Virus record (IMG/VR): IMGVR_UViG_2585427590_000001
Coordinates: 5,971 to 69,970 of that record
DNA length: 64,000 nucleotides
Origin: a virus
Lineage: Duplodnaviria > Caudoviricetes
Reading direction: 5' to 3' (one strand)
This document shows positions 7,706-33,388 of the stretch, piece after piece. The position numbers and the translations under genes are program-made. Under the pieces are notes generated by a model that was given only the letters and a program-made list of their open reading frames with translations, had not been told where the DNA came from and did not search any database. Position 1 is the first letter of the stretch. Each line of letters starts with the position of its first letter.

Positions 7706-7736
7706 AGCCCCGAAACACGTCGCGCACGAGTGCGGC
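7681..7736 (+). promoter_or_regulatory. Putative late promoter plus GCGCACGAGTGC leader hairpin
   Basis: AAAACT..CGGG.TTTGC-TATAAA (7701-7706), then CGCA-CGAG-TGCG; same architecture upstream of the giant gene. Confidence 0.6.
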
Positions 7737-7758
7737 CTCCATCACGAGGTTGGCACAC

Positions 7759-8919
7759 ATGGGCAAGTCGACGTCCTCCGCACCAGATCCAGATCCGAAA
7801 ATCGGCGAATCCGCCCTGCTGCAAGCGCAGACGGGTGAGAAGTGGCTCAGCTTTGCGAAAGATGCCTTCGCGGTCTCTCAGGATCGCCAGAAGGAGCTCG
7901 ATGCTATCACGAAGCAGGTCAGCCAGCAGCAGCTCGGACTTGCCACAGATCAGGCGGATTGGGCGCGCGAGGACCGAAACCGCTACAACACCACGTTCAA
8001 ACCCATCGAAGACGATTTCATCAAAGAGGCGACGAACTACGCCAGCGAGGATAAACAGGCAGAGGCCGCGGCGGAGGCCCGTGCCGACGTCTCCACGGCC
8101 GCCGCCAATGCGCGCGCGGCCAACGAACGCAATGCCGCTTCGATGGGTATCAACCCGGCTTCTGGCCGGTTCGCCGGCATCGCAGCCACCACTGACATGA
8201 ACCAGACACTGGCGGAGGCTGGGGCCGCTAATACGGCTCGTCAAGCCGTGCGAGACAAGGGCCTTGCTCTGAAAGCGGACGTTGTCAACCTCGGCAAAGG
8301 CCTGCCTGCTACCGCAGCTGCGGGCGCGGCCGGTAGCGTCTCGGCTAGTGGTACCGCCCTCAGTGGCAATCAGGCGACCAATGCTCAGGCGCTGGCCGCC
8401 CCCAGCATCGTATCTCAGGGCTACGGCGGCGCAATGCAGGGCTATGCCGGTCAAGCTTCGACGCTCAATCAACAGTATGGCCTTCAGCTTGATGCCTGGA
8501 AGGCGCAGCAGCAGGCTAACGCACAGGGCGCGGCCGGTATAGGCAGCTTCTTGGGCGGCATCGCCTCTATGTTCACCTTCCCCTCCGACGAGAACGTCAA
8601 GCACGACAAGGCGGAGATCGAAGACGGCAAAGCGCTGGATGCGGTCAACAACATGCCGGTCACTGAATGGACCTATGATCAAGGCGTCGGTGACGGCGGT
8701 CGTCACGTCGGGCCGATGGCGCAGGACTTCCAGCGCGAGACCGGAAAGGGCGACGGCAAGTCTATCGCCGTTCAGGATGCAATCGGCATTCTGATGAAAG
8801 CCACGCAGGATCTTGATCGGAAGGTCGACCGAATGGCCGACGTCATCGGCCTTGGAGACGCCCCAGTAGCGCGCCCGAAGGCAAAGCAGCAACAGTCTGA
8901 TGTGAGGATGGCGGCATGA
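7759..8919 (+). CDS. Ejection/DNA-transfer-like protein with C-terminal S74 intramolecular chaperone domain
   Basis: GAGG RBS; MGKSTSSAP start; Ala/Gln/Gly-rich helical body; SDENVK...WTY...HVGPMAQDF S74 motif. Confidence 0.75.
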   Translation: MGKSTSSAPDPDPKIGESALLQAQTGEKWLSFAKDAFAVSQDRQKELDAITKQVSQQQLGLATDQADWAREDRNRYNTTFKPIEDDFIKEATNYASEDKQAEAAAEARADVSTAAANARAANERNAASMGINPASGRFAGIAATTDMNQTLAEAGAANTARQAVRDKGLALKADVVNLGKGLPATAAAGAAGSVSASGTALSGNQATNAQALAAPSIVSQGYGGAMQGYAGQASTLNQQYGLQLDAWKAQQQANAQGAAGIGSFLGGIASMFTFPSDENVKHDKAEIEDGKALDAVNNMPVTEWTYDQGVGDGGRHVGPMAQDFQRETGKGDGKSIAVQDAIGILMKATQDLDRKVDRMADVIGLGDAPVARPKAKQQQSDVRMAA

Positions 8920-10154
8920 GCTTGGCAGGTATCGGGATCGGCCTCGGTGGCTTTATGGAGGGCTATCAAAGGGGCACCGAGCTCCGGCAGCAGAAAAAGC
9001 GCGCCGAATATCTCGACCAGCAGGCCGAGCGGCAGAAGATCATCGACGCTCGCGAGGACGAACAATACGCGCGCACTGAAAAGCAGCGTCAGGATATCGC
9101 CGCCATCGGGACTGAGGCTCAGACAAGGTTCGACTCGGCGGTAAAATCTGGCACTCAGCAGCCGGGCGACTTCGATACCTTCTGGTCGACCTATGCCGTT
9201 CCGAAACTCTCGCAAACTTACCTCGCAAACGGGGATCTCGATAATGCACGTAAGGTGCAGGAGTGGGGCGACAGCGCCGAGGCCAAGGCAGGTGGCAAGC
9301 TTGCCATGGGAGCACTGCTGAAGGCTCAGACCGGCGATACGGATGGCGCGTTGGCAGATGTGATCAAAGCCGGCCAGATGAAGGGCTACATTGATCACGG
9401 CTATGAGGTTCTCGGCCACGACAGCATCGCCGCCCCCGACGGTTCAGTTGCAGGCTATCGCCTTCGCCTAAAAACCCCCGATGGCAAAGAGGTGGAACAG
9501 GACGTCCAGAAGGCAGATATGCCGCGGCTGATCGCGACCTTCCTTAATCCAGAGGCCGCATGGGACAGCCAGGTCAAAGCACGCGCCGAGACTGCGAAAG
9601 ACGCCAAAGAACTCGACCAGTACGAGGCCAAGAAGAAGATCGACAAGCAGTACGGCACTGGCGAGAACAAGACCCGTGGCGATGCCATTGCGGCGCTTCG
9701 CAAGCGCATGGACGGCGGTCTAGCCGGCAACGAAACGAAGTTCGACGATCTGCCGCGTCAGGAGCAAGAGAAGCTAATTGCTTCGGAAATCGATCTACAG
9801 GGCGGTCAGCCTGGATTGTCGGCAGACGGTCCCGTGGCATCTGCTGCACCAAGCGGGCCGTCTCGGAAGGTTATCGTCGACACTGCGACCGGCAAGCCGG
9901 TTGCCGACGAGCCCCCACGGCAGCCGGCGCCGACACAGAACGCCTCCGCGCAGCAGCCAGCTCCTCCGCAAACGCGCGAAGATAACGTCGCCTACCTGCT
10001 CCAGTCGGCTGACCAGGCCGTGAAATCCGGCGAGAACCCACAGCGCATCGCCCAGGATCTTCTCAACAATGGCGTTCCGCGGGAGCAGTGGCCCGAATCC
10101 CTCGCGACGGCGCTAGCCGTTTCGGAGCGAAACCAGATCGGCCTTGGCCGGTAA
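8916..10154 (+). CDS. Probable ejection / internal virion protein
   Basis: N-terminal GIGLGGFMEGYQRG followed by coiled coil; last gene of the + strand structural operon. Confidence 0.65.
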   Translation: MSLAGIGIGLGGFMEGYQRGTELRQQKKRAEYLDQQAERQKIIDAREDEQYARTEKQRQDIAAIGTEAQTRFDSAVKSGTQQPGDFDTFWSTYAVPKLSQTYLANGDLDNARKVQEWGDSAEAKAGGKLAMGALLKAQTGDTDGALADVIKAGQMKGYIDHGYEVLGHDSIAAPDGSVAGYRLRLKTPDGKEVEQDVQKADMPRLIATFLNPEAAWDSQVKARAETAKDAKELDQYEAKKKIDKQYGTGENKTRGDAIAALRKRMDGGLAGNETKFDDLPRQEQEKLIASEIDLQGGQPGLSADGPVASAAPSGPSRKVIVDTATGKPVADEPPRQPAPTQNASAQQPAPPQTREDNVAYLLQSADQAVKSGENPQRIAQDLLNNGVPREQWPESLATALAVSERNQIGLGR

Positions 10155-10193
10155 TCCCAGCGCCTAAGTGATTAGCGGCCAGAGGGCAAAACG

Positions 10194-10225
10194 AAGCCGC
10201 GCGGAGAAACCCAGCGCGGCTTTTT
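10194..10225 (+). terminator. Rho-independent terminator, possibly bidirectional
   Basis: AAGCCGCGC-N11-GCGCGGCTT followed by further Ts, between convergent genes. Confidence 0.75.
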
Positions 10226-10255
10226 ACATTTTCAACAACATTATTCTAAGCGAAT

Positions 10256-10432
10256 TCAGGTCGCCTGCTTAAGCTCTTTTGTCTTGCCCCGCCGCTTTAG
10301 CTCTCGCTCAATCGCCGCGCGTATAAAGTCCAGTCTCACCTCACCTTTTTCCAAAGATGCATCTATTCGTTCCGTTGTCCCTTCGGTCAACGGCAACTGA
10401 ATACGCTCGGTGAACTGTTTCTTGCGCCCCAT
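10256..10432 (-). CDS. Ribbon-helix-helix (Arc/CopG-like) DNA-binding protein
   Basis: MGRKKQFTERIQLPL...RIDA.L..GE.RLDFIRAAIERELKRR; TTGACA upstream on the - strand. Confidence 0.75.
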   Translation of the reverse strand: MGRKKQFTERIQLPLTEGTTERIDASLEKGEVRLDFIRAAIERELKRRGKTKELKQAT

Positions 10433-10493
10433 TTTAGAGGGACTTACATGTATACGAAAGTCTGTCAAGCGCCACCCTTTAACGTGTATACGC

Positions 10494-10539
10494 ATTGACT
10501 AAATAACATGTATATCTTATCTGTTCAATCAGATACACG
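10494..10539 (+). promoter_or_regulatory. Promoter/operator, copy A of a 46-bp diverged repeat
   Basis: TTGACT-N17-TATCTG with TGTATA boxes; 35/46 identical to 26669-26714. Confidence 0.6.
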
Positions 10540-10565
10540 ATTGGACTTAAGCTTTGACCGCGCCC

Positions 10566-10922
10566 TCACCCTGGAAGGTACTGCCTTTCCTTCAACCACT
10601 CGGCCAGCATGTCGGCAACAGCGGACCCTCTGTCTACAGACTGTGGGAAGCACTCTGTTCTCGCCTTGCAAAACGCTTGGAAGGTTTCCCGGGGAAGCAT
10701 CACGACGATCGGCGCACCGTTTTCCCTGTTCTTGCTATCGATCAGGTCAGCGGATTCCGCCCAAAGGGTGAAGATTTGTTTAATGACCTGCGGCCGCGTT
10801 ACGCCGATCGAGCTCGCGAAATTTTCGAGCGCATCATACAAATCTTCGTGGAGGCGCACCTGAACGGGAATTCCCTTCCCGGTTGGCGGGCGCCCACGCT
10901 TCTTAGGTTGCATTTTTTCCAT
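10566..10922 (-). CDS. CopG/RHH-type transcriptional regulator
   Basis: KKRGRPPTGKGIPVQVRLHEDLYDALE...TRPQVIK motif; start codon uncertain. Confidence 0.7.
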   Translation of the reverse strand: MEKMQPKKRGRPPTGKGIPVQVRLHEDLYDALENFASSIGVTRPQVIKQIFTLWAESADLIDSKNRENGAPIVVMLPRETFQAFCKARTECFPQSVDRGSAVADMLAEWLKERQYLPG

Positions 10923-11493: not shown

Positions 11494-14400
11494 TCAACGA
11501 TACACGGGGTCAGACAAGCTCTCTCGCAGGCGAAGGCTGAGGATCTTGTTGCGGATCAGGACGCCGTCCTCCCGTTTTGCCGAATTGCTGGCCCGGGTTT
11601 TCAGCGATCGTTGTAGGGTCTCCTTCGTGATCGGCACCCCACCATGTACCGGCAACGCGTTGAACTTCTCAATCGCCCTCACCGCGTCGTCGATGGCACC
11701 ATCATCCTGAGACATGGCCGCCATCGCGAACTTGTTGACCAGGCGCTGACGCTCACCGAGAACGCGTCGCTCCGCGTTCTTCAATGCCGTGTTTCGGTCC
11801 CACGTCTCCGCCACCCTCGCCGGGTTGAAGCCGAGCGCCTGGGCAACGATGTCATCATAGCCCATCTCATCGGCCGGCAGCACCTGATCCCCGCCGACGG
11901 TAGCCAATCCTTCGCTAGCGTACCGGTAGGATTTCATCAGGTCTCGGACCGCCTTGGGCGCCATCATCTCGATGCCACGGGCAACCTCACCATCATAGAT
12001 CAGGCTGGCACCCGTGTAGAGCGTTTCCCCAAGCCCCGCCGTCGCGCCGAGCGTCTGCGTGAGCCAATACTGGTACTCGTCCTTGCCCTGAAGGTCGCGA
12101 GACGGAGACCGGAACCACAAATCTGGCATGCCGATGCGGCTCGACAGATCAATGCCGAGGTAGTGACCGGGCACACCATTCAACACCACACCGCCGAGCT
12201 CCGGCCCGAGAATGTCAACGACGTTGGCCTTGAACTGCGTTTCGAAGTCCATCGGATCGTCATCGTCGCCGAACACCATGCCGGCCAGCCCCATCAGCAG
12301 ATGGAAGCCAACGGTGCCCGAAACGCCCGCCATAAGCGACATCATGCCGACGACGCCGGCGAGCTGATACCGTGCCTCCTTCCGCGCCTGCGCGGTTTCA
12401 CCCTTCATGGACTGGTGAATATCCCGGAACAGCCGATAGAGCATGTTGATGTTGTGCTGGCGGAAGACGAGAGCGACCTTGGCAAGATCGTTCTGCAGGA
12501 CAGCAGGCCGCGACGAGTTCGCATAGTCGAAATGCGTCTTCCAGGTGAGATCGTGCGCGGTGTCGATCGCCGCCGACATCGTTTCGCCTGCGTCACGCGC
12601 CATGCGATAGGCCGCCAGCGCCGTCACTTCGCGGTTCCAGACTTCAGCGCGATGGAACGCCCAGGAGATGACACCCATCACCCGCGCCCGCAGTGGCGTA
12701 TATTCCACGCCGGTTTCACCCACGCCGGCAAGGTCATGGCTCTGGGTCCGGTCGATCAGGCCCGATTCATAGAATGCCTTGATCGCTGTCTTTTCGTCCT
12801 TCGAGAGGTTGCCGTTGACGATCGAGCCGCGGCCCCTGACCGTATCCATGGACGCTTGCGCCAGCGCGGCGCCTGCCTTGGCGAAGCTACCGAACTTCGC
12901 AGACAGGATCGGAAGGCCTAGCATGACAGTCTGCGTCATGTTGACGACGGCAGCGGCCGGTGAGGCCGCGAGGAACCACACAAAGGCAGTGCTTGTCATG
13001 GTCTGCGCGGCCTTGCTTCCGGTCGGGTTCATCACCCACTCGTGTCGCTTGGATAGCTCGTTGGCGAGGGTGACGCCACGTGTCTGATCGTCGCTCTCCT
13101 TTGCCTGATCCATCGCCTGACCGGTGAGCTCCTGCAATTCGAGCCCATATTTCAAGCGCGCGATCTGGTGCGCGCTGTGGAACATGTGCGACGAGAACAC
13201 CCGCAGTGCGTCGCCGGTGAACCCTGCTGTGCCCTGGCGATGGATGAAGCGCTTGCGAGCCGATAGATCCGGCATGCTTTCCAGATATCGCTGCCAGATC
13301 TGATCCATGATGTCGTTGCCAACGCCGGCGCCGCCAAGGATTTCCTCGATCTCGGCAACAATGCGTGGATCCATGGCCTTGCGTAGATCACTCCCCGCCT
13401 CCATGACCCCCACCTCAACCTTCGCGCCGCCAGCCCCGCGGCGGAGCTCCTCGGCAAAACGATCACGGGCGGCAGCCGTTTCGAACTTCGAGAAGCTCAG
13501 CACCTTCCCGTCGATATCCCGCTGGGTGACGAAATACCGCCCGAAGCGGCCGAGCGGGAAATACGGCTCTTCGACACGGCTTGCCTCGAAGGCGATACGC
13601 ATCTTCGTCAGCCGCGCCTTTGCCGCCCATGTGGCCTTGGTGGTTTCCGCCTTATGCGCGCTCGCCGCATCCTCTTCGGCATTGCGCCGATCGATGCCCG
13701 TCAAGCCGCTATCTCTGATCTTCTCCATCGTCTTGCGATAGCGAGCCTCTGCGCGATCGTGGGCGATCTGCTGCGCCTTCCTCACGTTATCGAGGAGGAT
13801 GTCGTCGAGCTCGAGCGCCTGCTTTTTGTAGGCGTCCCGGACGCGCTGATAGAGCTCCCTGCCCTTGACCGGCATCGCCATGTACTGCTTCCGCAGCAGA
13901 TCATATCCGGGCTTTTTCGTGGTCTCCTCGTCAGTCTTGCTCGGATCGACGCCAGCAAGGGTGCTGTTGTGCATCAGGTTCGCCAGTTCCTGGGCCCGGC
14001 TCTTGTCCTTGCCGAGGAAGCCGAGGCGGGCATATTTCAGCCATTCGCCGGCGATCTCGTCGGCGGCGGCATGCTTCGTGCCACGGTAGGCGTCCATGAG
14101 GCGCTTGACGCGAAGATAGTCGCCGACGGCGGTCATGTTTGGCCGGGCGAGTTCCGTGAAATAGTTCAGCGGGATCGTCTTCAGGAGTGCCGGCTGGATG
14201 TCGACGAGCTTGCCGTTCAGCTCCTTGATGACACGGCTCTCGCTTATGCTTTTTCGGCTGCTGACTTTCGCTGAATCATCTGGCGCGCCTGCTTCAGATA
14301 GACCTGACGCTGAGGATCGCTGGGAGGCCACTTGCTGACCGACTGGGCCCAGTTTTTCCATTCCTGCAACGTGTCGAATGGCGTTGGAGGATCGATTAGC

Positions 14401-17400
14401 CCCTGTACTGCTTGGATCTGGTTTTCCATTTTTGAAGAATGCCCTCATGAGTTTCAGAGCGGCTTCGTCAATTTTCCGATCAAGCCCCGGAACAACTGAA
14501 GTGTCATAGGGCTTACTAGCGGAAAAGTCGATAATGCCGGCTCGATTAGCCACAATTGCTGCGAAGTGGTGGAACGCATCTTTCGCCTGGGCATCCGTGA
14601 TCTTGCGATCTTTAACCAGGCTGTCGAGGAAAGGTTCAATCTCGTACGACAGGCTGGCGAGATTGTTGCCGAAAACGTTGCTGTCGCGGCTGATATTCTG
14701 GCTCGCGGCGAGGTAGTCTCGAGCCGTCTGCGTTATGCCGCCGACGGTGTTGTAGCCGTCATGTCCCATTGCATAGATCGAGTGAACCCCGGGATAAAGC
14801 GTTGCTGCTATATCCGGCGCGCTCAGCGGCGTGTTGGCGGGATGGTTATGATAGAGCACCATGCTGCGATCGGGGTTCGCCATTGCCGAGGCGAGCTTGT
14901 TGCTCATCCCGGTATAGCGCGGGTCGCCTGCGGTGCCGAAATCGATTGTAGAACCGTCATCATCGATCGCAACGAGATACTCGTGCCCGCTAGCTTGACC
15001 CTTCTCCAAGACGATGCGGCGGGCCCAATCGGCATAGCTCTCATCTTCGCCGCGCTCGGGAGCTTGGGCCTCCTTGAACCGGCCGTCGCCACGAACAACA
15101 GGATCAGGGCGCTTGGCCACGGCAGCGTTTGCAGAACCCTTCTGCTTTGGCTTCAGTGCATCGAGAATGCGGCGATGCCGCGCCGACGTCTCCGTGAGCT
15201 CTTCAGAGTGCTCCCATGGGCCAAGCTGTTTTTCAAGCGATGGGATCTGCTCCCTCGCCTCGGCGACGCGCTCGCGGTCCAACTGGGGCAGCGTAGAGAG
15301 CTTCTTGACGGTGTTGATCACGCGCATGCCGAGACCGGTCGCGTCTACGTCGGCAGCGTCCTGTACGTGCACCTGATAATCACGGTCGCCAGAGACTGTG
15401 ACTTCGAACGCCCGATCATACTGGTGCTCGATCGACAACGTGAAATCGCCGTACTTGCCGAGTTCCGTGTCGCCGGCGTGGTCGATCAGTTCCTTGCGCA
15501 TGGCCGCTGCTATTGCGGCCCCGAACTCCTTTGGCTTGTCGAAGGTCTGGCCGCCGATTGTTGCCTCAAATGGCTTGTCGGCAATTGCCTCTGCCCGCTC
15601 TGCATCCTTCTGGACGGAGCTCGAGCGCGCTTCGATCTCGTCGGCTTCCTGTTTAAGAGACCTGATCTTGCCCTTGATACGGTGCTGTTCGCGATCGTGT
15701 TCAACCGACTGGCCTTCCAGCTGGCGCAGCTTGCGACGAGTTTCCATCTCTTCAAGAATGAGAGGGTTGCCCGAGGCAGCGGCCTTCATCTCGGCGGCAT
15801 TCGCAGCCTCGCCGGCAATATCCTCGATCTCGCGGGTTTTCAGATTGCCCTTACGAACCTGCTGGATGAATCGGGCCTTCGCTTCGATGCCCTGCCACTG
15901 GCGCGCATCAAGGGTGTTCTTCGTCGCGTAGCGTAGGATTTCGATTTCGAAGTTGTCCGGATCCTCGCCATAGAGCTCGTTGCCCTGGCGGATGCCACGG
16001 CCGTCACGCTGCTCGAGGTCGGACGGACGCCACGGCGCATCGAGGTGATGGAGCGCTACCAGGCGGTTCTGCACGTTGGTGCCGGCGCCCATCTTCGGCG
16101 TTGAGCCGAGAAGGACTCGGACGCGGCCTGATCGAACCTTTCCGAACAGCTCTTCCTTCTGCGCCTCGGTGTTGGCGTCGTGAATGAAGGCGATCTCATC
16201 GGCAGGGATGCCGCGCGAGATCAGCTTTTCGCGAAGATCATCGTAGACCGAGAACGTGCTCTGCAGCGCGAGGAAGTCATCGGGCGACATATTGTCGAGC
16301 TTTTCCTGCGCCGCCTCGTCGCCCTCGTCCGCCTTCTGGATCAGGGCGCGGAGCGCGGCCTCTTCGCGGGCGCGCGCCTTCTTCGGCGTCGACAGGTCGA
16401 TAAACACCAACTGCGTGCCGCGGCTCGCGTGCCAACGATCGTAGACGCGCTTAATATTGTCGGCAGAGACGTGGACCTTTGAGCCCGGATGATCCGAATA
16501 GGCGGGATCGATCAGGCGCATGTCGAGCGCAGCCTTGCGGGCATCCGACATGACCTTCAGCATGTTGTCGGCGCCCTTTTCCACCTTCTTCGGCAGATTT
16601 TCAGCGCGCCAGACGAGAGAGCCCTTCGGGAACTCAAGATTTCCGTTATCGTCAGCCTTGCCTTCGCCAATAAAGGCTGCCTGATCCGGAGAGCGCTCGA
16701 CGGTGATATTGGTCGGCTTGCCGCCCTTCACCTTCGGCAGCGGGAGCTTCTTGCCGATCGCGGCCAGCTGCGCCTTGATGTCGTCATTGGTGATGACGTC
16801 GGCGAAGCTGAGATAGCGCTGCATCAGCTCGGGCATGTTCACGAACTTGGCAAACCGGCTGTTCAGCTTGTACTGACCGCTCGGCGAAAGCTCCCAGTCG
16901 CTTACTACCTCGCCGAACACCCTCGCCCAGGCGTCGAAATGCGCGACACCGAGATTGCGAAGCGCTTTCTCGTCGAGATACCGCTGGACCGTGAACATTT
17001 CGGCCATCGTATTGCTGAGCGGCGTTCCGGTTAGGAAAACAACGTTGTTGCCGCCGGTCTTTTCGAGAATGAACCGGCTCTTCATGTAGAGGTCGGACGC
17101 CTTCTGGCTGCCCGCTTGATTGCCGAGACCAGCAACGCGGTTCATCGATGTGGCAAAAGCGAGGTTCTTGAACTCATGCGCCTCGTCGACATAGAGCGCG
17201 TCAACGCCGAGCTCGTCGAACGTGAGGCCATCATCCTTCTTTCCGGCATCCAGCAGCCGTTCCATCTTGGCCTTGAGGTTGTCGCGCCATTTGGTGAGCT
17301 GAGCGACGTTCCGCGACTTCTCGCCAGTGTTACGGCGCAGCTCCCCGATGGACTGCTCGAGATCGTCCATCTGCTGCTGGATGAATCGGCTTTCATAGTT

Positions 17401-26478: not shown

Positions 26479-26500
26479 GCGCGCGGGCTCCATCGTAAGA

Positions 26501-26555
26501 GCCGCACTCATGCGCGGTAAATGACAGGCGATTTATAGGCAATCCCGACAGTTTT
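26501..26555 (-). promoter_or_regulatory. Putative late promoter plus GCGCATGAGTGC leader hairpin of the giant gene
   Basis: AAAACT.TCGGGATTGCC-TATAAA, then 16 nt, then the hairpin; matches 7681-7736. Confidence 0.6.
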
Positions 26556-26668
26556 TGGAAGCGCAGATTGGCCTTAGCCGAGGTGCTCTTCAATGTGATC
26601 AATGGAATACCGGCCGAAATATAACTGAAACGGGCATGGCCTGATGACGTCGGCCTCGGCTCCAACGT

Positions 26669-26714
26669 ATTGACGTCATATCGTGTATACGTTATCGCTT
26701 CAATCATATATACG
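26669..26714 (+). promoter_or_regulatory. Promoter/operator, copy B of the 46-bp repeat
   Basis: TTGACG-N17-TATCGC with TGTATACG; homologous to 10494-10539. Confidence 0.6.
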
Positions 26715-26743
26715 TTTGGCGAAACGGAAAAGGCAGGGCATTC

Positions 26744-26887
26744 ATGACCGATACAGTAGTTGCTTTGGGTCAATCGCACGATATGAGCGCACTATCCGAC
26801 ATTCTCGTCGCTTGTGGAGCGCTCTTCGTCACAGGTCTCGTTATGTTCCTAGTCAGCAGGAAGCCTGAAATCAAGGACCGTAGCTGA
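26744..26887 (+). CDS. Small single-TM membrane peptide (47 aa), moron-like
   Basis: Manual translation MTDTVVALGQSHDMSALSDILVACGALFVTGLVMFLVSRKPEIKDRS; promoter upstream, CCGGCGC/GCGCCGG hairpin downstream. Confidence 0.5.
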   Translation: MTDTVVALGQSHDMSALSDILVACGALFVTGLVMFLVSRKPEIKDRS

Positions 26888-26937
26888 ACTAAAACCATGA
26901 CCGGCGCTGGCTTGTGCTATGACGCGCCGGTATCCGC

Positions 26938-28308
26938 TCACGACGGAGCTGACCAGTTCAACAGCGTGCGCGGGTCCGTGACCTTGCGCAACTCGACCTC
27001 GCCGCACTTGACGATTGGCGTTCCAGAAACGTTGGCGTCAAAGGTAATTTCAGTACGCCAGCGGCCGTTTGGAGCTGCGCCGATGATCTGGAAAGGTGGC
27101 GTCTCTAGATAGCCGGCCCGCGCCTGCGCCGCCCATTTCTCGTTCGCTGAACCACTGTTATACGGCTCCATCGCATACGAGATGATGCCCCCCGATGTCT
27201 GGTCGGAAGCATACAACGCGACACCGGTGAACCCGGCGTAGTTGTTCGTTTCGATCTTGCAACGAGCCTGTATCCAGTCACCGACAGCCATCCCGCTAAG
27301 CGCGGTATCTGCGGCGTTGGTGCGGAAATAGAACTTGTCTTCCGCTGTACCTGCCGGAGTGAAAGTCATCACCTGATATTCGCCGAGACCATCGGCCCGG
27401 GCCTCTTTCGAAGCGACGACAGACGATCCGCCCGCAGACCGCTCCACGCGCATGCCGGTTGCCACGGTCCCGGTAGCGCCAGTTCCAAGCGTTCCTGTAG
27501 TGCCGAGGCAGAGAGGGTTTACCAACCGGTTGCCAAGCGGGTTATTTGTCGCGTCATACAGATCGTCAGGGTATGCGGTGAAGCCCTGCGCTGCAGGGAG
27601 GATCGTCGCGAGGAATTGAGCCAACGCATAGCCGACAGCCTCGCCGCCCTTCGGGTTGAAATGGATCGCGTCAGGCGAATAACCGCTCTTTGGCTCGCCG
27701 TAGGTGGACGCGAAATCAACCCAAGAAAGGTTCCAGTCGAAGAAATAGCAGTTCTTCTTCGTGCGGCAGAACTCGCGCGTCTTGCGGTTGATCCAGTTGG
27801 CCTTGGCGCGCTCCGGGCCGCCTCCCGTCCAGGATCCGACGCCACGCGCAAGGATTGGCATGAGGATGACGATCTTGCCGAACGAGAGATAGTAGTTCGC
27901 GAGGCTTTCGCGTGCGGCCTGTATATCCTCTTTCGTCTGGGGCCCCATGTCGTTTGTTCCATCATCGATAACGACGATGTCGCAATCTACCTTGGTAGCG
28001 AGATACGACTTACGCGCCTCGATCTGCGCGAACGTCTGGCCGCTGACGCCTGCATTCAAGCCTTGAAAATAGCGAGTTGCACCCCCGACACCGGAAGGCT
28101 CCCAACCTGCGTAGACGGTGCTGTCAAACCATATCGGGCAAGAGAACAAACGGCTGCCGTAAAACCGCGCCCACGACAACCAACCACGTGACCAGTGGCT
28201 AATCTTCGGGCTGATCGTCCCGTTCTCACAGTGCTGAACGAGCGACGTGCCGATCACGCCGAGGCGGTAGCCGCGAGCGGGTACAACATTTTCAAGATTG
28301 AGTGTCAT
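26938..28308 (-). CDS. SGNH/GDSL hydrolase-domain protein, probable virion-associated polysaccharide esterase
   Basis: Blocks IGTSL, NAGVSG, DDGTND, DAIH; C-terminal beta-sandwich-like region. Confidence 0.8.
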   Translation of the reverse strand: MTLNLENVVPARGYRLGVIGTSLVQHCENGTISPKISHWSRGWLSWARFYGSRLFSCPIWFDSTVYAGWEPSGVGGATRYFQGLNAGVSGQTFAQIEARKSYLATKVDCDIVVIDDGTNDMGPQTKEDIQAARESLANYYLSFGKIVILMPILARGVGSWTGGGPERAKANWINRKTREFCRTKKNCYFFDWNLSWVDFASTYGEPKSGYSPDAIHFNPKGGEAVGYALAQFLATILPAAQGFTAYPDDLYDATNNPLGNRLVNPLCLGTTGTLGTGATGTVATGMRVERSAGGSSVVASKEARADGLGEYQVMTFTPAGTAEDKFYFRTNAADTALSGMAVGDWIQARCKIETNNYAGFTGVALYASDQTSGGIISYAMEPYNSGSANEKWAAQARAGYLETPPFQIIGAAPNGRWRTEITFDANVSGTPIVKCGEVELRKVTDPRTLLNWSAPS

Positions 28309-28511
28309 GCTGCTACCCTCAAGACGACGGGTTCATAGTTTCCGGTGACAGGATTTCGGGCCATCACCGGCTCATAGTTGCCGGTGGATGGATTGCGAGC
28401 TGTGGTGAGAGCGAAGCCAGCAGGCACCCGGATGCCTATGCGCCGGGGGCCGAGGCCAACAATGTTCGACGGCAGCCGAAGCCGTCGCTTCAAGCTACTG
28501 AGCGCGCCCAT
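28305..28511 (-). CDS. Small phage protein with tandem ARNPxTGNYEPV repeat
   Basis: Start and stop overlap both neighbours; two 13-aa repeats. Confidence 0.6.
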   Translation of the reverse strand: MGALSSLKRRLRLPSNIVGLGPRRIGIRVPAGFALTTARNPSTGNYEPVMARNPVTGNYEPVVLRVAA

Positions 28512-28834
28512 CAGGTGGCAGCCGTCCAGACAAAGGCGTCGCCAGGCGTCACGTAGAGATCGTGGGGGCCATCGGCCGCGCGGAGAAGATGAAGCTTCCC
28601 GGTCCCGATGTTTGGAGTTTTGCCGTCGTGGCAGCAGAAGATGTCGATCTTGTTGGTAATGCGGAAGATCGGCAGCAGTCCATCCTTGTCGATGGCGGTG
28701 TTCGTGGTCACGGCGCCGTCAGCTGGCTCTTCGAACCATTGCGGCAGCTTCATGAGAGCCTGCTTATCGGGCCCGCGGCCATCACCGCCAGCATAGCCCT
28801 GAATAACGTGAACGTTCGGAATTGCACGCGCCAT
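28511..28834 (-). CDS. Phage hypothetical protein (possible virion accessory)
   Basis: AAGGA RBS; ATG at 28834; preceded by the GCGCAAGAGTGC hairpin. Confidence 0.65.
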   Translation of the reverse strand: MARAIPNVHVIQGYAGGDGRGPDKQALMKLPQWFEEPADGAVTTNTAIDKDGLLPIFRITNKIDIFCCHDGKTPNIGTGKLHLLRAADGPHDLYVTPGDAFVWTAAT

Positions 28835-28858
28835 CTCGATTCCTTTCAAGCGAGGATG

Positions 28859-28890
28859 GCACTCTTGCGCCTGAAAGATGCCGCACCATA
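28859..28890 (-). promoter_or_regulatory. -10-like TATGGT plus GCGCAAGAGTGC leader hairpin
   Basis: Third copy of the hairpin, 14 nt downstream of a -10-like hexamer. Confidence 0.55.
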
Positions 28891-28922
28891 TCGCACAATT
28901 AAGCGATGAGAAAGATCCACGT

Positions 28923-29050
28923 TTGCCGCCGGAATACGTACCAAAATACAAGTGGACGCCCGACGTGGCCGGGTGAAACCGGCCTCGACGGCAAGCCACT
29001 ACAGGATTTCCAGGGCTGGGACGGCGAGGACCCGGTCGGAGCCGGCCGAC
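28923..29050 (+). pseudogene. Frameshifted, truncated remnant of a small rhizobial hypothetical gene
   Basis: PEYVPKYKW in one frame continues as TWPGETGLDGKPLQDFQGWDGEDPVG in another. Confidence 0.35.
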
Positions 29051-29094
29051 GAGAGCTGGCTGTTAGCGCATTACTTGAGAGCGCCTGCCTTACA

Positions 29095-30372
29095 TCACTT
29101 TCCTAGCTGTCCGAGTTTATCCGAGCAACGCAGATAAAATAGGAAGTAAGGTTCCACAAAATCAAGGACATCTTCGTCCCATTCAATCGCTGGCGCGCTT
29201 GCGTTTGACTCCTTGGACAACTCGGTCATTTGCTGCAGAGCGGCATTCACACTCGAGCCAGCGGGTGCCTCATCGACGCAGACGTTTTTAATTCTGAAAA
29301 GTATTTCGTCGTAACGAAGCGCCAATTGAGCAGGCTCACGGGCCATCGCCATCAACACTGCCCGATAAACGTCGCCGGTGCTCCCGTCGTCCAACCTGAA
29401 AGTTTTCCTTTCTGTGCCGCGCTGCCGCGGGCCAGCATGAATTTTCTCCAGTAGTGATGACCAATCTGTAAACGTCGAGGTTTGGAGAAATACTGCCTTA
29501 ATGTCATCTTCTGACACGTCCACTCGCACGTGCTCGGGCAAAGGCCGTCTGATCCCTTTTTGAAAGCATAAGTTCAGGCAAAGACTCTGCATCAGCTGTG
29601 GCGAACCAAACGCCTCGTCCGCGAGCCGTTCGATCACTGACGGCGCTAAATCCACATTAAGCACCGGGAACCCATTATTGGCGATCATTTTCAAATGATC
29701 TTTCGACCAGTATCCCAGATCTACCGCCGCGAGCCTGCCTCGCAATTCTGGATTTGATCTAACGACGTCGTCGGAGCGGTGCGGCACCGATGCAGTGCAG
29801 ATTTTAACCCCGTTCTCGATCGCGGCCTTGATGTTCTTTCCGATTTCTTCTTGGTGCTCGGGCGGAATGTAGTGAAAGTCATCAATGAAGACAACAAAGT
29901 CACTGCCACCGATCTCGTTGATTACCGCCGGCAACCCTCTCTTCGCAAACGTCTTGGTTACGCCTGAGACAGTCTTTCGCTCTACCTTAAAATCACCACT
30001 GGCATTGCCCTCGGCGATTAAAGGGATGCCGACCTTCCCGCCTGCGTTCGCCCCAGCACCGAACATGAGCTCCTTTTCGCCAGAATGCTCCTCAGCATCC
30101 GGCACATCCATCCATCTCAAAATTGTCTGCCATAGGTCGTCGGCTGATTTCAACGATGCGCCGTTGATGTTGATAAGCAAGTTAGGATCGATGACTTTTT
30201 TAAGCAGCACCGTCTTACCCGACTTAGATGGCCCAGAAACAGAGACTGCCATGTTCTTCATGGAGAACGCGTCTTGTAGCCGTTGTTCGAGCTCCAGCTC
30301 GGCACGATCTACGTAGGTATATACCGGGCTGCTGTTCGGCGTAAAAACGTCAGTAGCGGTGATTGTTGCCAT
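29095..30372 (-). CDS. P-loop (AAA+/STAND-like) ATPase, moron
   Basis: Walker A VSGPSKSGKT, Walker B VVFIDDFH; AT-richer than neighbours; GGGAG RBS. Confidence 0.85.
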   Translation of the reverse strand: MATITATDVFTPNSSPVYTYVDRAELELEQRLQDAFSMKNMAVSVSGPSKSGKTVLLKKVIDPNLLININGASLKSADDLWQTILRWMDVPDAEEHSGEKELMFGAGANAGGKVGIPLIAEGNASGDFKVERKTVSGVTKTFAKRGLPAVINEIGGSDFVVFIDDFHYIPPEHQEEIGKNIKAAIENGVKICTASVPHRSDDVVRSNPELRGRLAAVDLGYWSKDHLKMIANNGFPVLNVDLAPSVIERLADEAFGSPQLMQSLCLNLCFQKGIRRPLPEHVRVDVSEDDIKAVFLQTSTFTDWSSLLEKIHAGPRQRGTERKTFRLDDGSTGDVYRAVLMAMAREPAQLALRYDEILFRIKNVCVDEAPAGSSVNAALQQMTELSKESNASAPAIEWDEDVLDFVEPYFLFYLRCSDKLGQLGK

Positions 30373-30560
30373 TGATTCCCAGACTCCCATTTCAATCTAA
30401 GGGTGAAACCATATCAGCAATGTTGTGACAAGATGCTATCTCAGGATGTTTCGCATATAGACTGCTGAACTGTCCTTTTTGTAACGCAGCCCCTTAGTCC
30501 ATGCATGTTATCGGGACCAGCAGCGAGGCGGGTCAAATTTCCTTGCGGCTTTGACGTCGG

Positions 30561-30995
30561 CTAGATCTTGTCGGGGTCGAAATCGGGCCCCGTTACCCAC
30601 CTCTTGATCAGCGCCTGGTACACGGCGCGACCATTCATCCGCCGCATGATCCGGCTCCGGTCGCGCAACGTCACCTCATGCGTTGGCGGGTTGTTGCGGA
30701 CGATCATCCGGAACGCCTCATTTGCCGCCCACGGATCGTTAGCGCCACCGACGGTCTCGGGGTATCGAGCGAAGGGCGGACGAACGTCGATCGTGTGGAT
30801 GAAGTGATCGCCGTGGAAATCGGGCGGACCGCTGTCGGGAATGACCATGACGTCATCCTGTTTGCCGACTTCGCACAGCTCGAGCCGCTCTTTCCCATAA
30901 ATCCATACGACTACCAGCTCGCCGTCGCGCATGCGCCGCGCCTTCGAGCAAACCTGCCACTCACCCATATAGCTGACCAGCCGGCATTCGCGCAT
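30561..30995 (-). CDS. Hypothetical protein, probably SOS-regulated
   Basis: GGAG RBS overlapped by a LexA-type box. Confidence 0.6.
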   Translation of the reverse strand: MRECRLVSYMGEWQVCSKARRMRDGELVVVWIYGKERLELCEVGKQDDVMVIPDSGPPDFHGDHFIHTIDVRPPFARYPETVGGANDPWAANEAFRMIVRNNPPTHEVTLRDRSRIMRRMNGRAVYQALIKRWVTGPDFDPDKI

Positions 30996-30998
30996 TTT

Positions 30999-31013
30999 GT
31001 TCTCCGTTCGTTC
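30999..31013. promoter_or_regulatory. Alphaproteobacterial LexA (SOS) box
   Basis: GTTC-TCCGTTC-GTTC, exact GTTC-N7-GTTC. Confidence 0.7.
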
Positions 31014-31063
31014 TCATCGCAATTAGCGCTGACCGCGCTATCTGTCCAGAGTCGGAGTGCATC

Positions 31064-31378
31064 ATGACCGACAACCCCTCACCGATTCCCATCACACCAC
31101 TCGGTGCGGTAATGCCGCGCTCGAAGGGCGCCAAGATCGTGTACAGCGTTGCCGATCTCGCCCATCTGTTGCTGCATGAATGGCCCACTGAAAAACGCGG
31201 TGACGCCTGGTACGCGGCCCAGTCCGCTTGCCTACGAGCTCTGGAAGCTCAGTCGAACGGATATGCTGCACGCGCTGCGTTCGTGATGGCTGCCAGAGAT
31301 GCTGGCATTTCGATTGTGCAGGGCGATGTTCTGCCATCGTGGCAATCGAAGCACACGAAAAAAACCGCTCCCGAATGA
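31064..31378 (+). CDS. DUF982 family protein
   Basis: SVADLAHLLLHEWP...AQSACLRAL...ARAAFVMAARDAGI. Confidence 0.8.
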   Translation: MTDNPSPIPITPLGAVMPRSKGAKIVYSVADLAHLLLHEWPTEKRGDAWYAAQSACLRALEAQSNGYAARAAFVMAARDAGISIVQGDVLPSWQSKHTKKTAPE

Positions 31379-31417
31379 CGGAAGCGGGTCAAGCGTGAAC
31401 CCATAGCGGGGCTAATT

Positions 31418-32032
31418 TTACGCCGCAACCGCGGTGGCATCAACACCCTTCGGCCCGTCAATGATGTAGCGGTAGAGTTCCTCTGCGTGCCGCGTCACAT
31501 CGGTCGGACCTGTCATCGGCAGTGTGAGCTCAACGCAATAGAGCCGCAACTGCTCGGGGCTCCAATAACAGGGGTTTGCGTGGCGTGAGGTTACGATACC
31601 AGTATCCGGCTCCGGCACCTCACAACTCTCGCAGTCCGTCGGCGGCTCGCTGTTGACGAACTCCCGCTCAAACGTCCCCTCATCGTATACGGCAACTACG
31701 CCCAGGCTGTCGCGGGCGATGTAGTCTTCCGGCCGCGCCTTGGCATCCTCTGGCACCTGAAGCAGCGTGACGCCGTCGCCAGCAATCACCATCTGGCCGC
31801 ATGCATAGATCTCGCGGACCCAGCTCGGCAGTGTGCTCCAATCGTCCTCCGGAGAGGCGATAATCTCACGTGCCTGCACTGCCTCGACCCGCACGGGTAT
31901 CTTCAAATATTCGCGCATTGCTTTAACGCTCTCCTTCAAGCCTATGGTCCTGCTGATGTTTGTAACGGTATGATGCTCGAAATTATGCTCTAAAATCTTG
32001 GCGATCTCGTCAGGCGTCCACTGATCGCTCAT
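31418..32032 (-). CDS. Phage hypothetical protein
   Basis: 204 aa; AAGGAG RBS; ATGA overlap; YLKIPVRVEAVQ motif. Confidence 0.7.
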   Translation of the reverse strand: MSDQWTPDEIAKILEHNFEHHTVTNISRTIGLKESVKAMREYLKIPVRVEAVQAREIIASPEDDWSTLPSWVREIYACGQMVIAGDGVTLLQVPEDAKARPEDYIARDSLGVVAVYDEGTFEREFVNSEPPTDCESCEVPEPDTGIVTSRHANPCYWSPEQLRLYCVELTLPMTGPTDVTRHAEELYRYIIDGPKGVDATAVAA

Positions 32033-32412
32033 AGTGACTCCTTGACCTCTTCTGCAGTGACCTTGTGGAAAATGTAGCCGGTCAGCGCGAACCGATTGCG
32101 ATACTCGATAGCGAGCAGTGCTGGATCATGCTGGATACACAGGGTGTCCAGTTTGGCGTCCATAGGGTATGGCAAAACTCGAGCCGTCGAAACGAGACGG
32201 ACGGGATAGTCCATCATCGTCGGCTCGCCTGACCGCCCAAAACCAAACAGGCGCCCGAATTGATCGAACTTCCTCACTAGGCTGAAGGTTTCATGGTCCA
32301 GCACCCAGCATACCGGCTCGCAATCTCTAGCATGCACCCGATGGAGCATTTCGCCCAATAGATTGGTGACGTGGTTCTCAGCCTCTTTGAGGTGCTTGAT
32401 AAGCTCGTGCAT
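32029..32412 (-). CDS. Phage hypothetical protein
   Basis: Coupled to both neighbours. Confidence 0.6.
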   Translation of the reverse strand: MHELIKHLKEAENHVTNLLGEMLHRVHARDCEPVCWVLDHETFSLVRKFDQFGRLFGFGRSGEPTMMDYPVRLVSTARVLPYPMDAKLDTLCIQHDPALLAIEYRNRFALTGYIFHKVTAEEVKESL

Positions 32413-32645
32413 TAGAACGGAATCCCATCATCGCCGCGCGCTGGCTTCTTGATCTTCACGCTCTCGACGACAGGTTGGGCAGCGGAGAAAGCGTCCACGG
32501 CAGCGAGCACAACGAACGTTGCGCCGGGATTCAACCTTGCAAGGCGTTCCGCCTCTGCCGTAGCCTGGGCCTTGGATCGGTGCTGATACGTCGAGCCGCG
32601 CTGGCCGACGCCATAGACCATCCAGAATTTCGAAATTTCACTCAT
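32412..32645 (-). CDS. Phage hypothetical protein
   Basis: FWMVYG...H.S...A..EAERLA..NPG..F.VL motif; GAGG RBS. Confidence 0.7.
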   Translation of the reverse strand: MSEISKFWMVYGVGQRGSTYQHRSKAQATAEAERLARLNPGATFVVLAAVDAFSAAQPVVESVKIKKPARGDDGIPF

Positions 32646-32857
32646 TCGCACCTCGTAACAATCTGCGACCCGGCAAGCTTCAGCTCGCCCTCGGCCGTCT
32701 TCACCCACCACTCAAGTCGGAAAGACCTGCACCGGGGGGCGCTCTCGTCATGCTGCGTCTCAATCGTCGGACGCTCTGGCTTCAATGGCTCCTGCTTCGC
32801 CAACGCCGCACCTGTAGCGACGGAACCAACCAGAGCGCCGACGATCGCCGCCCTCAT
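32642..32857 (-). CDS. Small exported phage protein
   Basis: Signal peptide MRAAIVGALVGSVATGAALA; two Cys. Confidence 0.5.
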   Translation of the reverse strand: MRAAIVGALVGSVATGAALAKQEPLKPERPTIETQHDESAPRCRSFRLEWWVKTAEGELKLAGSQIVTRCE

Positions 32858-32859
32858 CT

Positions 32860-33105
32860 TCAAAATCCGCAAGCGAAGATGATGATTGCCCAGGCAGCGG
32901 CAGAAAAGCCGATCCACGAAACCCAAAAATGGAAGAATTTCGCTTGATCGTCCTGCGCCGAAAACTGAGAGATGACTGCAAGGAGCGCCGCGAACAGCGC
33001 TGCTACCCTCGCCCAATGGCCGCCGTATTGAATGATTGTCAGGAGAAGCAGCAAAGCGAACAGCGTTGCAGCGATCGCACTTGCGGTACGGCGTAATTCA
33101 CTCAT
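32860..33105 (-). CDS. Small 3-TM membrane protein
   Basis: 81 aa with three hydrophobic segments. Confidence 0.65.
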   Translation of the reverse strand: MSELRRTASAIAATLFALLLLLTIIQYGGHWARVAALFAALLAVISQFSAQDDQAKFFHFWVSWIGFSAAAWAIIIFACGF

Positions 33106-33220
33106 GCCCTAATGATCCTGCTGGTAGGCAGATTGGGGCGCGGTAACGTCCACGAACACAGACGCGCGTTGCTTCTTTGCATACCGCGCCCCGGTCCGCT
33201 CGGGGGTTATGGGAGACGAC

Positions 33221-33297
33221 TGGTTGCGGGAGCTGGATTTGAACCAGCGACCTATAGGTTATGAGCCTAACGAGCTACCGGGCTGCTCTACCCCGCA
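33221..33297 (-). tRNA. tRNA-Met(CAT), initiator-like variant
   Basis: TGCGGGGTAGAGCAGCCCGGTAGCTCG-TTAGGCTCATAACCTAT-AGGTCGCTGGTTCAAATCCAGCTCCCGCAACCA; cloverleaf with encoded CCA. Confidence 0.92.
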
Positions 33298-33376
33298 TCA
33301 GTCGATAATTGTGACAAGAAAGTTGGCTAGGATTTTTGTCAACGGGGATCGGCAACATTCACAGATGCCGGAGCGG

Positions 33377-33388
33377 GCACTCTTGCGC
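33377..33388 (-). promoter_or_regulatory. GCGCAAGAGTGC hairpin directly after the csrA-like gene
   Basis: Fourth copy of the motif; no CDS follows it. Confidence 0.55.

Follow-up and report, generated by a model that had tools for sequence, protein, structure and literature searches.

The DNA analyzed here, referred to as the window, is a stretch of 64,000 nucleotides (nt) spanning bases 5971–69970 of the 69,970-bp IMG/VR provirus record IMGVR_UViG_2585427590_000001. It carries four exact copies of a 12-nt hairpin motif, GCGCANGAGTGC, associated with late transcription units, and a gene for a 57-amino-acid (aa) protein related to the carbon storage regulator CsrA. Matches to PHROG families identified the small and large terminase subunits, the portal, a tail fibre, an internal virion protein, and two virion structural proteins. 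Agrobacterium phage Atu_ph08 and Sinorhizobium phage PBC5 have portals 68% identical to the one encoded here; for Ochrobactrum phage POI1126 and the Bcep22-like phages (Burkholderia, Ralstonia, Pseudomonas, Serratia, Klebsiella, and Erwinia), portal identity is 52–58%. The phage is a temperate podophage of the Atu_ph08/PBC5/POI1126/Bcep22-like family. Its gene order agrees with that of Atu_ph08: the terminase-portal-scaffold operon closes with the small csrA-like gene, a giant gene of ~5,000 codons (annotated as DarB-like in the relatives) is shared, and the block running from the capsid to the virion protein genes adjoins a divergently transcribed lysis module. Comparison of positions 26300–34600 with a phage collection by megablast gave no match, and the relatives were reached via their proteins.

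A hairpin motif in the leaders of late operons

The 12-mer occurs four times in the window, versus a mean of 0.07 in 100 dinucleotide shuffles, none of which reached four. All four sites reported in an initial annotation of the window are exact, and each is read, as claimed there, in the sense of the neighboring genes (Table 1). The motif has almost no degenerate halo: only one further site with a single mismatch was found, within the giant open reading frame (ORF; 17170–17181), and sites with up to two mismatches were fewer than expected (28 versus 45.7). Neither a generalized pattern nor a covariance model revealed additional members in the window, the four copies scoring 21–26 bits and the next match 12.9 bits. 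The count of four was incomplete for the provirus. Immediately to the left of the window are two 13-nt copies whose loop is longer by one base: GCGCAAGACGTGC precedes the capsid ATG, and GCGCAGGACGTGC, divergent from the former, precedes the first gene of the lysis module. With these, the provirus contains six copies. The late units led by the motif are the capsid operon, the virion protein genes, the gene for the giant DarB-like protein, the SGNH-type operon, and the lysis genes, which upholds the proposal that the motif marks late transcription units. The sole late operon without it is the terminase-portal-scaffold operon, which encodes the CsrA-like protein. The 12-mer of copy 4 begins 11 nt after the csrA-like stop codon and the corresponding 7-bp hairpin 8 nt after it; this copy is kept in three relatives (L006, L008, and L009).

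Table 1. Coordinates of the motif copies, partner strands, and associated features in the window. SD, Shine-Dalgarno sequence.
Feature	Position	Strand	Remarks
Hairpin CGCGCA-CCGTC-TGCGGC	24–40	+	Small variable hairpin after the capsid-gene terminator; "variant" of the initial annotation
−10-like box TATAAA	7701–7706	+	15 nt before copy 1; overlaps the stop codon of an acyltransferase-like ORF (7250–7705); putative promoter
Copy 1	7719–7736 (12-mer 7722–7733)	+	7-bp local hairpin with flanks, GUCGCGC-ACGA-GUGCGGC; 21.1 bits; 25 nt to ATG 7759
Leader 1, partner strand of the closed form	7730–7764	+	GUGC 7730–7733 with GCAC 7753–7756; start codon 7759–7761
Two virion structural protein genes led by copy 1	7759–10154 (7759–8919, 8916–10154)	+	phrog_8003 (6e-152); phrog_9667 (3.2e-88)
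Giant virion-protein gene	11494–26478	−	~4,994 aa from ATG 26478; homologue in Atu_ph08 and POI1126 annotated as DarB-like antirestriction
Leader 2, partner strand	26474–26503	−	anti-SD GGCUCU with SD GGAGCC (SD 26491–26488); CCGCGC with GUGCGG; start codon 26478–26476 with CAUG of the motif
Copy 2, leader of the giant gene	26504–26515	−	16 nt after TATAAA (26537–26532); 26 bits; 25 nt to ATG 26478
Operon led by copy 3	26938–28834	−	107-aa ORF, 68-aa ORF, 456-aa lipase/SGNH-like protein (phrog_6102, 4.3e-54)
Copy 3	28859–28870	−	14 nt after TATGGT (28890–28885); 24 nt before ATG 28834; 21.2 bits
tRNA-Met (CAT)	33221–33297	−	Downstream of copy 4
Copy 4	33374–33391 (12-mer 33377–33388)	−	Stable 7-bp local hairpin, CGGGCGC-AAGA-GUGCCCG; 21.7 bits
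Gene for the 57-aa CsrA-like protein	33400–33573	−	Last gene of the terminase-portal-scaffold operon; candidate ligand of the motif

Anatomy and conservation of the hairpin

Alignment of 66 leader copies defined the consensus 5'-GCGC-A-N-G-A-(Y)-GUGC-3', a 4-bp stem that includes an invariant G·U pair, and a loop of 4–5 nt whose optional fifth base is mostly C or U. Eight columns are invariant and three more are conserved in at least 90% of the copies. The four core pairs form in 66/66 copies, the third always being G·U, so that the GCA/TGC stem with an NGAG loop drawn in the initial annotation was in the wrong register. A fifth pair forms in 46 copies, with six pair types, and the next outward pair in 41; the outer pair changes from G-C to A-U in GP4, to C-G in locus L111, and to G·U in PBC5. 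The covariation score of the local hairpin was 0.192, versus 0.095 for shuffled alignments (0/500 reached the observed value) and at most 0.124 for slid controls. In the window, copies 1 and 4 extend to 7 bp. Searches of Rfam returned only the tRNA at gathering thresholds for the whole window, and no match at E up to 1 for positions 26300–29000.

The motif is kept in sense orientation in the leaders of related phages, a point that the initial annotation had put forward as a check. Atu_ph08 harbors four exact copies at homologous places (giant gene, virion-protein gene, capsid, and endolysin), POI1126 harbors five copies, and five IMG/VR relatives harbor 5–6 copies each (26 in all, versus 0 for a reversed control pattern). 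Across 36 related phage records, comprising relatives on contigs of at least 40 kb, there were 143 matches versus 8 for the reversed control, with at least one per record. An ATG-started ORF begins 10–60 nt downstream, mostly 19–31 nt, in 120 of 130 distinct contexts, a set that is biased in that its loci were chosen around late genes or motif matches.

Phages of alpha-, beta-, and gammaproteobacteria carry the motif ahead of the capsid gene, as GCGC-AGGAU-GUGC in BcepMigl (Burkholderia), GCGC-AAGAC-GUGC in Itty13 (Pseudomonas) and Parlo (Serratia), GCGC-AUGAC-GUGC in PEp14 (Erwinia), and ACGC-AGGA-GUGU in GP4 (Ralstonia). A strict pattern matched 56 of 60 distinct IMG/VR capsid leaders; inspection by eye revealed near variants in the other four (U·G at pair 4, a C-G outer pair, or a 6-nt loop). 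Within one genome, unlinked leaders tend to share the same bases at loop positions N and Y, and these bases differ between clades, with AUGA throughout the Atu-type records, AUGAY in the POI-type records, and AGGAC or AGGA in others. Upstream promoters vary with the host while the motif remains constant: phages of gammaproteobacteria have good TTGCGT-17-GATAAT promoters and phages of alphaproteobacteria have CTATAAA-type or TTGCAA-17-TATTTA promoters. In BcepMigl (L057), the hairpin motif is found in the capsid leader only. The regions upstream of four other late genes of this phage (at 17332, 29998, 33857, and 48626) share TA(T/G)A(G)AAT followed directly by CGCACC, CGAACC, or GGTGCG, which may be a different promoter-proximal signal.

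The motif also bears on the assignment of start codons. The giant ORF has three in-frame ATG codons (26511, 26493, and 26478), of which the first lies inside the motif and is the one taken by mechanical ORF calling. The SD sequence GGAG and the N-termini of the relatives (MPLVIGLG...) favor 26478. An ATG within the loop was considered as a general feature and rejected: the loops AAGA and ACGA do not contain it, even though the ATG of copy 2 shares the reading frame of the giant ORF. The annotated starts of Atu_ph08 gp36 (L001 40370) and POI1126 gp26 (L056 18530) are GTG codons inside the motif. An SD-bearing ATG matching the N-termini of homologues lies 32–33 nt (Atu_ph08) or ~40 nt (POI1126) downstream, and both annotated starts were probably set too far upstream.

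A second pairing involves the translation start

The loop and 3' half of the motif can also pair with the stretch extending from the SD to the start codon, often including the AUG, and this pairing is exclusive of the local hairpin. In single-sequence folds of the window leaders, the motif was engaged in a long helix with the translation start region, not in the small hairpin. In 27 of 51 distinct capsid leaders, an uninterrupted run of 7–10 pairs connects the motif with the 17 nt up to and including the AUG. The partner strand follows the loop type (CAUGAGUG:CACUCAUG, CAUGACGUG:CACGUCAUG, GGAUGUGC:GCACAUCC, and GGAGUGUG:CACACUCC). At least six such combinations were found, including a 6-nt loop met by an extra partner base, and several of the helices depend on G·U pairs. 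In the 51 capsid leaders, the mean helix comprised 6.53 pairs with the leader's own partner versus 5.01 with partners of other leaders, and 0/2000 permutations reached the observed mean, a statistic that, to the detriment of our case, is inflated by the shared descent that permutation and shuffle controls leave in. The independent compensatory classes are a stronger argument than this statistic. Thus, the motif takes part in two mutually exclusive RNA pairings, both of which covary.

The minimum free energy (MFE) structures of the five leaders examined all link the motif to the translation start, with the SD, the AUG, or both predicted to be buried (z scores of −1.3 to −4.27). The closed form was most stable for leader 2, that of the giant gene (MFE −30.0, z −4.27; 0/200 shuffles as stable). 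In leader 3, GUGCCAUC pairs with GAUGGCGC, which contains the start codon 28834–28832 (MFE −20.2, z −2.10), and the z scores of the lysis and capsid leaders were −2.63 and −2.57, respectively. Leader 1 has, in addition to the pairing listed in Table 1, an anti-SD (GGCCUC, 7734–7739) that pairs with the SD (GAGGUU, 7746–7751). Blocking the motif in silico raised the mean unpaired probability of the SD-to-AUG stretch from 0.17–0.36 to 0.37–0.48 in four of the five leaders. By reading, the anti-SD:SD hairpins shift together between clades, GGCUCU:GGAGCC in the window and Atu_ph08 versus UCCU:AGGA in POI1126. Application of RNAalifold to 10 giant-gene leaders recovered only the 4-bp core hairpin, without covariation. 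The anti-SD:SD helices were absent from this result because they fall in different alignment columns, and they were judged by eye and from single-sequence folds.

Putative transcription of the motif

The initial annotation had placed −10-like hexamers 14–16 nt before three of the copies. These hexamers are present by direct reading, but a scan for the sigma-70 consensus called no promoter upstream of copies 1–4. The motif is presumably transcribed from these boxes, and copy 1, which lies inside a co-directional gene array, would be transcribed in any case. Our own −10 scan was dropped as evidence since a TAnnnn box was present in only 48 of 120 leaders, the rule being too strict. Left of the window, the capsid/lysis intergenic region (4704–4852 of locus L024, of which position 5971 is position 1 of the window) contains two sigma-70-like promoters, TTGCAA-17-TATTTA for the capsid and TTGTTG-17-TATTGA for lysis, each followed by a 13-nt copy of the motif. 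Their −35 boxes overlap in a palindrome, ATTGCAACAAT, that many relatives share and that may serve as the operator of a DNA-binding regulator.

A CsrA-like protein as candidate ligand

The assignment of the neighboring 57-aa protein to the CsrA family was supported by the profile of the phage family and by the predicted fold. A homologue search with the single sequence recovered two close relatives only. At E up to 1, the Pfam CsrA model (PF02599) matched seven of nine aligned phage homologues (best 8.8e-8); the curated threshold was not reached by the window protein, nor by Atu_ph08 gp17, which scored 20.4 bits versus a cut-off of 27 bits. Compared with Protein Data Bank (PDB) chains, the phage-family profile retrieved RsmE and CsrA (best match RsmE 2jpp, 1.6e-5; the top nine were all CsrA), and a search with the profile recovered 79 database clusters, many of them matching PF02599 or named carbon storage regulator. 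The AlphaFold2 model, built from a 30-row alignment, had a predicted local distance difference test score of 81.1 and a predicted template modeling (TM) score of 0.57. In a Foldseek search of the PDB, the top 11 matches of this model were all CsrA, RsmE, or RsmA chains (TM score 0.61–0.72, probability 1.00), with root-mean-square deviations of 1.1–1.6 Å over 37–45 columns and E-values of only 0.04–0.2, as the protein is short. The protein is thus predicted to adopt the CsrA fold, built on a five-stranded beta subunit.

RNA binding by CsrA involves Leu2 and Leu4 of strand beta1 and the region of Arg44. The N-terminal MLxLT is kept in the window protein, which contains a single cysteine. At the equivalent of VHREE in the Arg44 region, where the alignment is uncertain, the homologues read KRDE (Atu type) or PIxR (Burkholderia type), and a basic residue is present.

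The csrA-like gene lies immediately upstream of the capsid leader in BcepMigl, Itty13, Parlo, PEp14, and most family members, and a relative of the gene was detected in 35 of the 36 related records. In the exception (G030), which has a single copy of the motif, the profile found nothing; a weakly similar ORF of 128 aa at the syntenic spot (L123 1114–1500) resembles the family over its first 33 residues only (hhalign probability 31%) and continues through the capsid leader. The late module yielded no further candidate for nucleic-acid binding, though most ORFs there are of unknown function.

Phage csrA-like genes have been listed as "morons" of unknown role (PMC9144972; PMC7366521), and a survey reported homologues in 30 of 2,517 phage genomes (PMC7366521). 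One peptide of the homologue of phage JC1 was found in virions (PMC9144972). The literature covered, with the founding Bcep22 paper and supplementary files outside its scope, describes no target for phage CsrA homologues, and no leader motif is mentioned in the accessible parts of these two papers.

Neighboring features

The initial annotation had considered the hairpin at 24–40 as a variant of the motif with the same stem and another loop. The letters are present, but the stem differs in relatives with 95–98% identical capsids, and the covariance model found no match at this site at E up to 10; the hairpin was therefore rejected as a member of the motif family. Positions 1–59 of the window, like loci L062–L066, contain a terminator-like hairpin (GCGCGGC-tctc-GGGCCGCGC) followed by T-rich sequence behind the capsid stop codon. 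Equivalent GC-rich hairpins follow the capsid stop codon in most relatives, and such a hairpin would set a ratio of capsid over downstream expression.

The tRNA-Met gene is located between the csrA-like gene and the next ORFs, an arrangement also found in relatives L006–L009, and a TTGACA box lies ~35–40 nt upstream of it (within 33298–33373). Between copy 3 and the tRNA region, a 431-aa ORF (29095–30390, minus strand) gave only weak matches to AAA-ATPases (PF13401, 8.1e-4, below threshold). The block 29095–33105 has no counterpart in Atu_ph08, which has three genes on the opposite strand there.

Proposed mechanism

We propose, tentatively and at slightly less than an even chance, that the motif is a cis-acting RNA operator of the late mRNAs that is opened by capture of the motif, the CsrA-like protein being the candidate ligand. 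The closed form would hold the 3' half of the motif, together with its loop, in the long helix with the SD-to-start stretch, burying the ribosome-binding region, with the anti-SD:SD hairpin at the tip of the helix. In the open form, the motif would fold on itself into a hairpin of 4–7 bp with the invariant G·U pair, displaying the A-N-G-A-(Y) loop. A phage-encoded factor, most likely the CsrA-family protein, would recognize this hairpin and pull the motif out of the closed helix, which should open the start site, given that the burying helix has the motif as one of its strands. Capture of the motif may thereby turn on translation of the capsid, the virion proteins, the giant protein, the SGNH-type operon, and the lysis genes. 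Since the regulator's own operon is the one late operon without the motif, the arrangement would fit a cascade leading from the portal/scaffold/regulator operon to the capsid, virion proteins, and lysis.

The initial annotation had invoked a private protein-RNA regulon acting by translation control or antitermination. Translation is favored as the level of control because of the 19–31 nt spacing to the ATG in most leaders and of the covarying pairing with the SD and AUG, the action being at the RNA level. A phage-borne reader of the hairpin is suggested by three observations: the motif does not vary at positions where a mere need for pairing would tolerate drift, the hairpin of copy 4 persists without a partner strand, and the loop positions N and Y tend to be uniform within a genome and yet differ between clades. 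The CsrA-like protein is the only evident candidate for this role because it is conserved with the motif, adjoins the ancestral capsid site, has a predicted RNA-binding fold, and belongs to a family that reads A(N)GGA loops. The case for this ligand (synteny, co-occurrence in 35 of 36 records, likeness of the loop, and presence of the same motif across very different hosts) is circumstantial.

Several observations weigh against this proposal. The CsrA-like protein of the window itself had no match to PF02599 even at E up to 1, and reads EIKLL at the VHREE equivalent. The proposed co-occurrence test was dropped: the motif is present in all 36 records and the gene in nearly all, so that both are near-universal and the records offer no clean loss of either and no informative negative set. 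Copy 4 is not followed by an SD or ATG partner and has no translation start to control. The helix is limited to 4–6 bp, usually GUGC:GCAC, in 24 of the 51 capsid leaders, including that of this provirus, and the stability of the closed form falls short of significance in leader 1 (MFE −20.9, z −1.3). Blocking the motif in silico did not improve accessibility for copy 3 (0.42 to 0.41) and left the anti-SD:SD hairpin in place. Finally, the GGA core of CsrA sites is absent from the four window loops (ACGA, AUGA, AAGA, and AAGA).

Alternative explanations

The same RNA element and the same ligand could serve repression, a CsrA-like dimer bridging the motif hairpin and a GGA- or GAG-containing SD ~18–21 nt downstream to achieve feedback shut-off of late translation or silencing of leaky late messages. 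The SD of each leader has such a triplet 12–14 nt after the motif (GAGG, GGAG, or AGGA), although GGA and GAG occur in the SDs of most genes anyway, and the SD context of copy 1, ACGAGG, repeats the loop ACGAG. The optimum distance between CsrA sites is ~18 nt, and the loop-to-SD distance fits a bridging dimer, which speaks against activation, as does the description of CsrA as mainly a repressor blocking 30S access in the parts of the literature covered (PMC7492729; PMC13443453). Copy 4 could be a decoy site, and the presence of a JC1 homologue peptide in virions would make action soon after injection possible (PMC9144972). However, the leaders are predicted to bury their own SD or AUG without any protein, making a repressor redundant; a motif forming one strand of the closing helix is the usual layout of activation by strand capture; and the regulator, located in a late operon, would repress genes made at the same time. 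We consider repression unlikely. Also unlikely, in our view, is a leader RNA that works without the CsrA-like protein, either through an intrinsically low, fixed translation rate combined with protection of the 5' end, or through another reader (a phage protein, a host RNase, the ribosome, or a host RNA such as rRNA). RNA alone explains both pairings, the motif would lie within a few nt of the putative 5' end, where a hairpin can protect against decay, and the link to the CsrA-like protein is circumstantial. A universal host partner would also explain an identical motif in phages whose hosts span three proteobacterial classes. Against this, pairing alone would permit compensated drift, and yet 11 of the aligned columns are invariant or nearly so; the partner strand varies and often pairs poorly; the hairpin of copy 4 is kept without a partner; and a loop that tends to be uniform within a genome and to differ between clades fits a phage-borne reader.

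A role of the motif as a loading site of the nut/boxB type, from which a phage protein acting on nascent late transcripts would render RNA polymerase resistant to terminators (processive antitermination), appears improbable. A small hairpin with a conserved, purine-rich loop of 4–5 nt near the 5' end of several long operons would suit such a site, copies 1 and 4 lie within co-directional gene arrays where read-through matters, and a terminator-like hairpin follows the capsid gene. However, spacing is kept to the ATG and to nothing else, and antitermination has no need of the covariation that couples the loop and 3' half to the SD/AUG region. Reading the leaders by eye revealed no boxA-like companion, no formal search having been made, and no N- or Q-like protein was identified. 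Least probable of all is a DNA-level signal, such as a part of a late promoter or the operator of a DNA-binding regulator, which the location 8–17 nt downstream of −10-like boxes, the short inverted repeat, and the very exact sequence might suggest. The distance to the −10 box is variable over this range, and the type of promoter changes with the host. The invariant G·U of the core stem and the G·U pairs of the long helices would be mismatches in DNA, and C·A on the other strand, and therefore point to the sense-strand RNA. The sense-strand transcript is further favored because the length of the loop varies (4, 5, or 6 nt) in a way incompatible with a dimeric DNA binder, because the orientation is always that of the gene, including in the divergent capsid/lysis pair, and because the partner, at 19–47 nt, tracks the start codon at a variable distance.

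Comparison with known systems

The initial annotation had likened the loop to the ANGGA site of CsrA. The resemblance holds for a C-G-closed A-N-G-A-(Y) loop in a short leader hairpin near the SD, as in the sites of CsrA and RsmA/RsmE (PDB 2jpp, RsmE-hcnA): the core stem forms in all aligned copies and the ATG mostly follows within the spacing given above. It does not extend to the GGA core, and the motif is not a canonical CsrA site for this reason. GGA loops were found in 29 of 120 leader-like copies (AGGAC, 17; AGGA, 8; AGGAT, 3; AGGACG, 1), such as those of BcepMigl (AGGAU), GP4 (AGGA), and the lysis leader of this provirus (AGGAC), whereas most copies lack GGA (AUGA, AUGAC, or AAGAC). In contrast to host CsrA sites, the GCGC/GUGC stem with its G·U pair is itself invariant, the motif doubles as a strand burying the start site, and the regulon would be private to the phage. 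The host genera of Itty13, Parlo, and PEp14 have their own CsrA/Rsm proteins. The capsid-leader loops of these three phages lack GGA (AAGAC, AAGAC, and AUGAC) and those of BcepMigl and GP4 contain it, a contrast between five phages that is far too small a sample to call insulation from host CsrA. Burkholderia and S. meliloti have been stated to lack a chromosomal csrA (PMC7366521).

CsrA activates ymdA of E. coli by melting a hairpin that sequesters the SD (PMC7492729). The mechanism proposed for the phage is the same, binding to the leader freeing the SD for the ribosome; it differs in that ymdA is a host gene with canonical CsrA and GGA sites, whereas the phage site is a conserved non-GGA hairpin present on five or six operons, to which the CsrA-like protein would bind. 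Likewise, Com of phage Mu activates translation of the late gene mom by binding a short hairpin next to a translation-inhibition structure, and prefers the hairpin form over the duplex form (PMC6483171). The phage leaders share with mom an intrinsic structure predicted to sequester the SD, the start codon, or both. In the phage leaders, the local hairpin, as the candidate protein-binding site, and the closed helix use the same bases. Com, however, is a zinc-finger protein dedicated to one gene, whereas the candidate here has a predicted CsrA fold, a single cysteine, and a site common to a set of late operons. The candidate does not qualify as a Com-type zinc-finger activator, and no search for a Com homologue was made elsewhere in the phage. 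The N-boxB system of lambda and P22 also combines a small stem, a purine-rich loop of 4–5 nt, and a small phage protein as reader; in the present phage, spacing and covariation are tied to the start codon, and boxA (by eye), N-like, and Q-like components were not seen. The CsrA homologues described as morons in Bcep22-like phages (JC1 gp47, Bcep22, DC1, GP4, Parlo, and PEp14) belong to the same family and occupy the same place between scaffold and capsid, but they are treated in the accessible parts of the corresponding papers as host-directed accessory genes, with no target named (PMC9144972; PMC7366521). Together, these comparisons suggest a translational leader operated by a protein, of the kind known for CsrA or Com, and set apart by a stem-specific site without GGA, a strand-exchange design, and reuse across a late regulon.

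Significance

Phage-borne CsrA homologues are widespread and usually dismissed as accessory. The motif offers a concrete target for them, a hairpin of 12–13 nt found in phages of three proteobacterial classes and placed to open or close the ribosome-binding site of the capsid gene; in this clade, the same applies to all the other late units, lysis among them. The motif also points to probable corrections of annotated start codons in published relatives. Even without the link to the protein, the RNA switch is well supported as a new cis-regulatory family absent from Rfam. In a bolder form of our proposal, which we regard as possible but doubtful, the phage CsrA homologues would not be host-directed morons but the master translational switch of the phage's own late program: a private variant would read a GGA-less hairpin with an obligatory G·U pair and unzip the closing helix, would be orthogonal to the host Csr/Rsm system, and would have spread from the capsid leader to a regulon of five or six operons in the alphaproteobacterial clade. 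If true, this would represent a post-transcriptional late switch acting phage-wide, a type of regulation for which few examples have been documented in temperate phages, operated by a natural CsrA-family protein with an altered, GGA-independent specificity, and it would provide a compact orthogonal protein/RNA pair for synthetic translational control.

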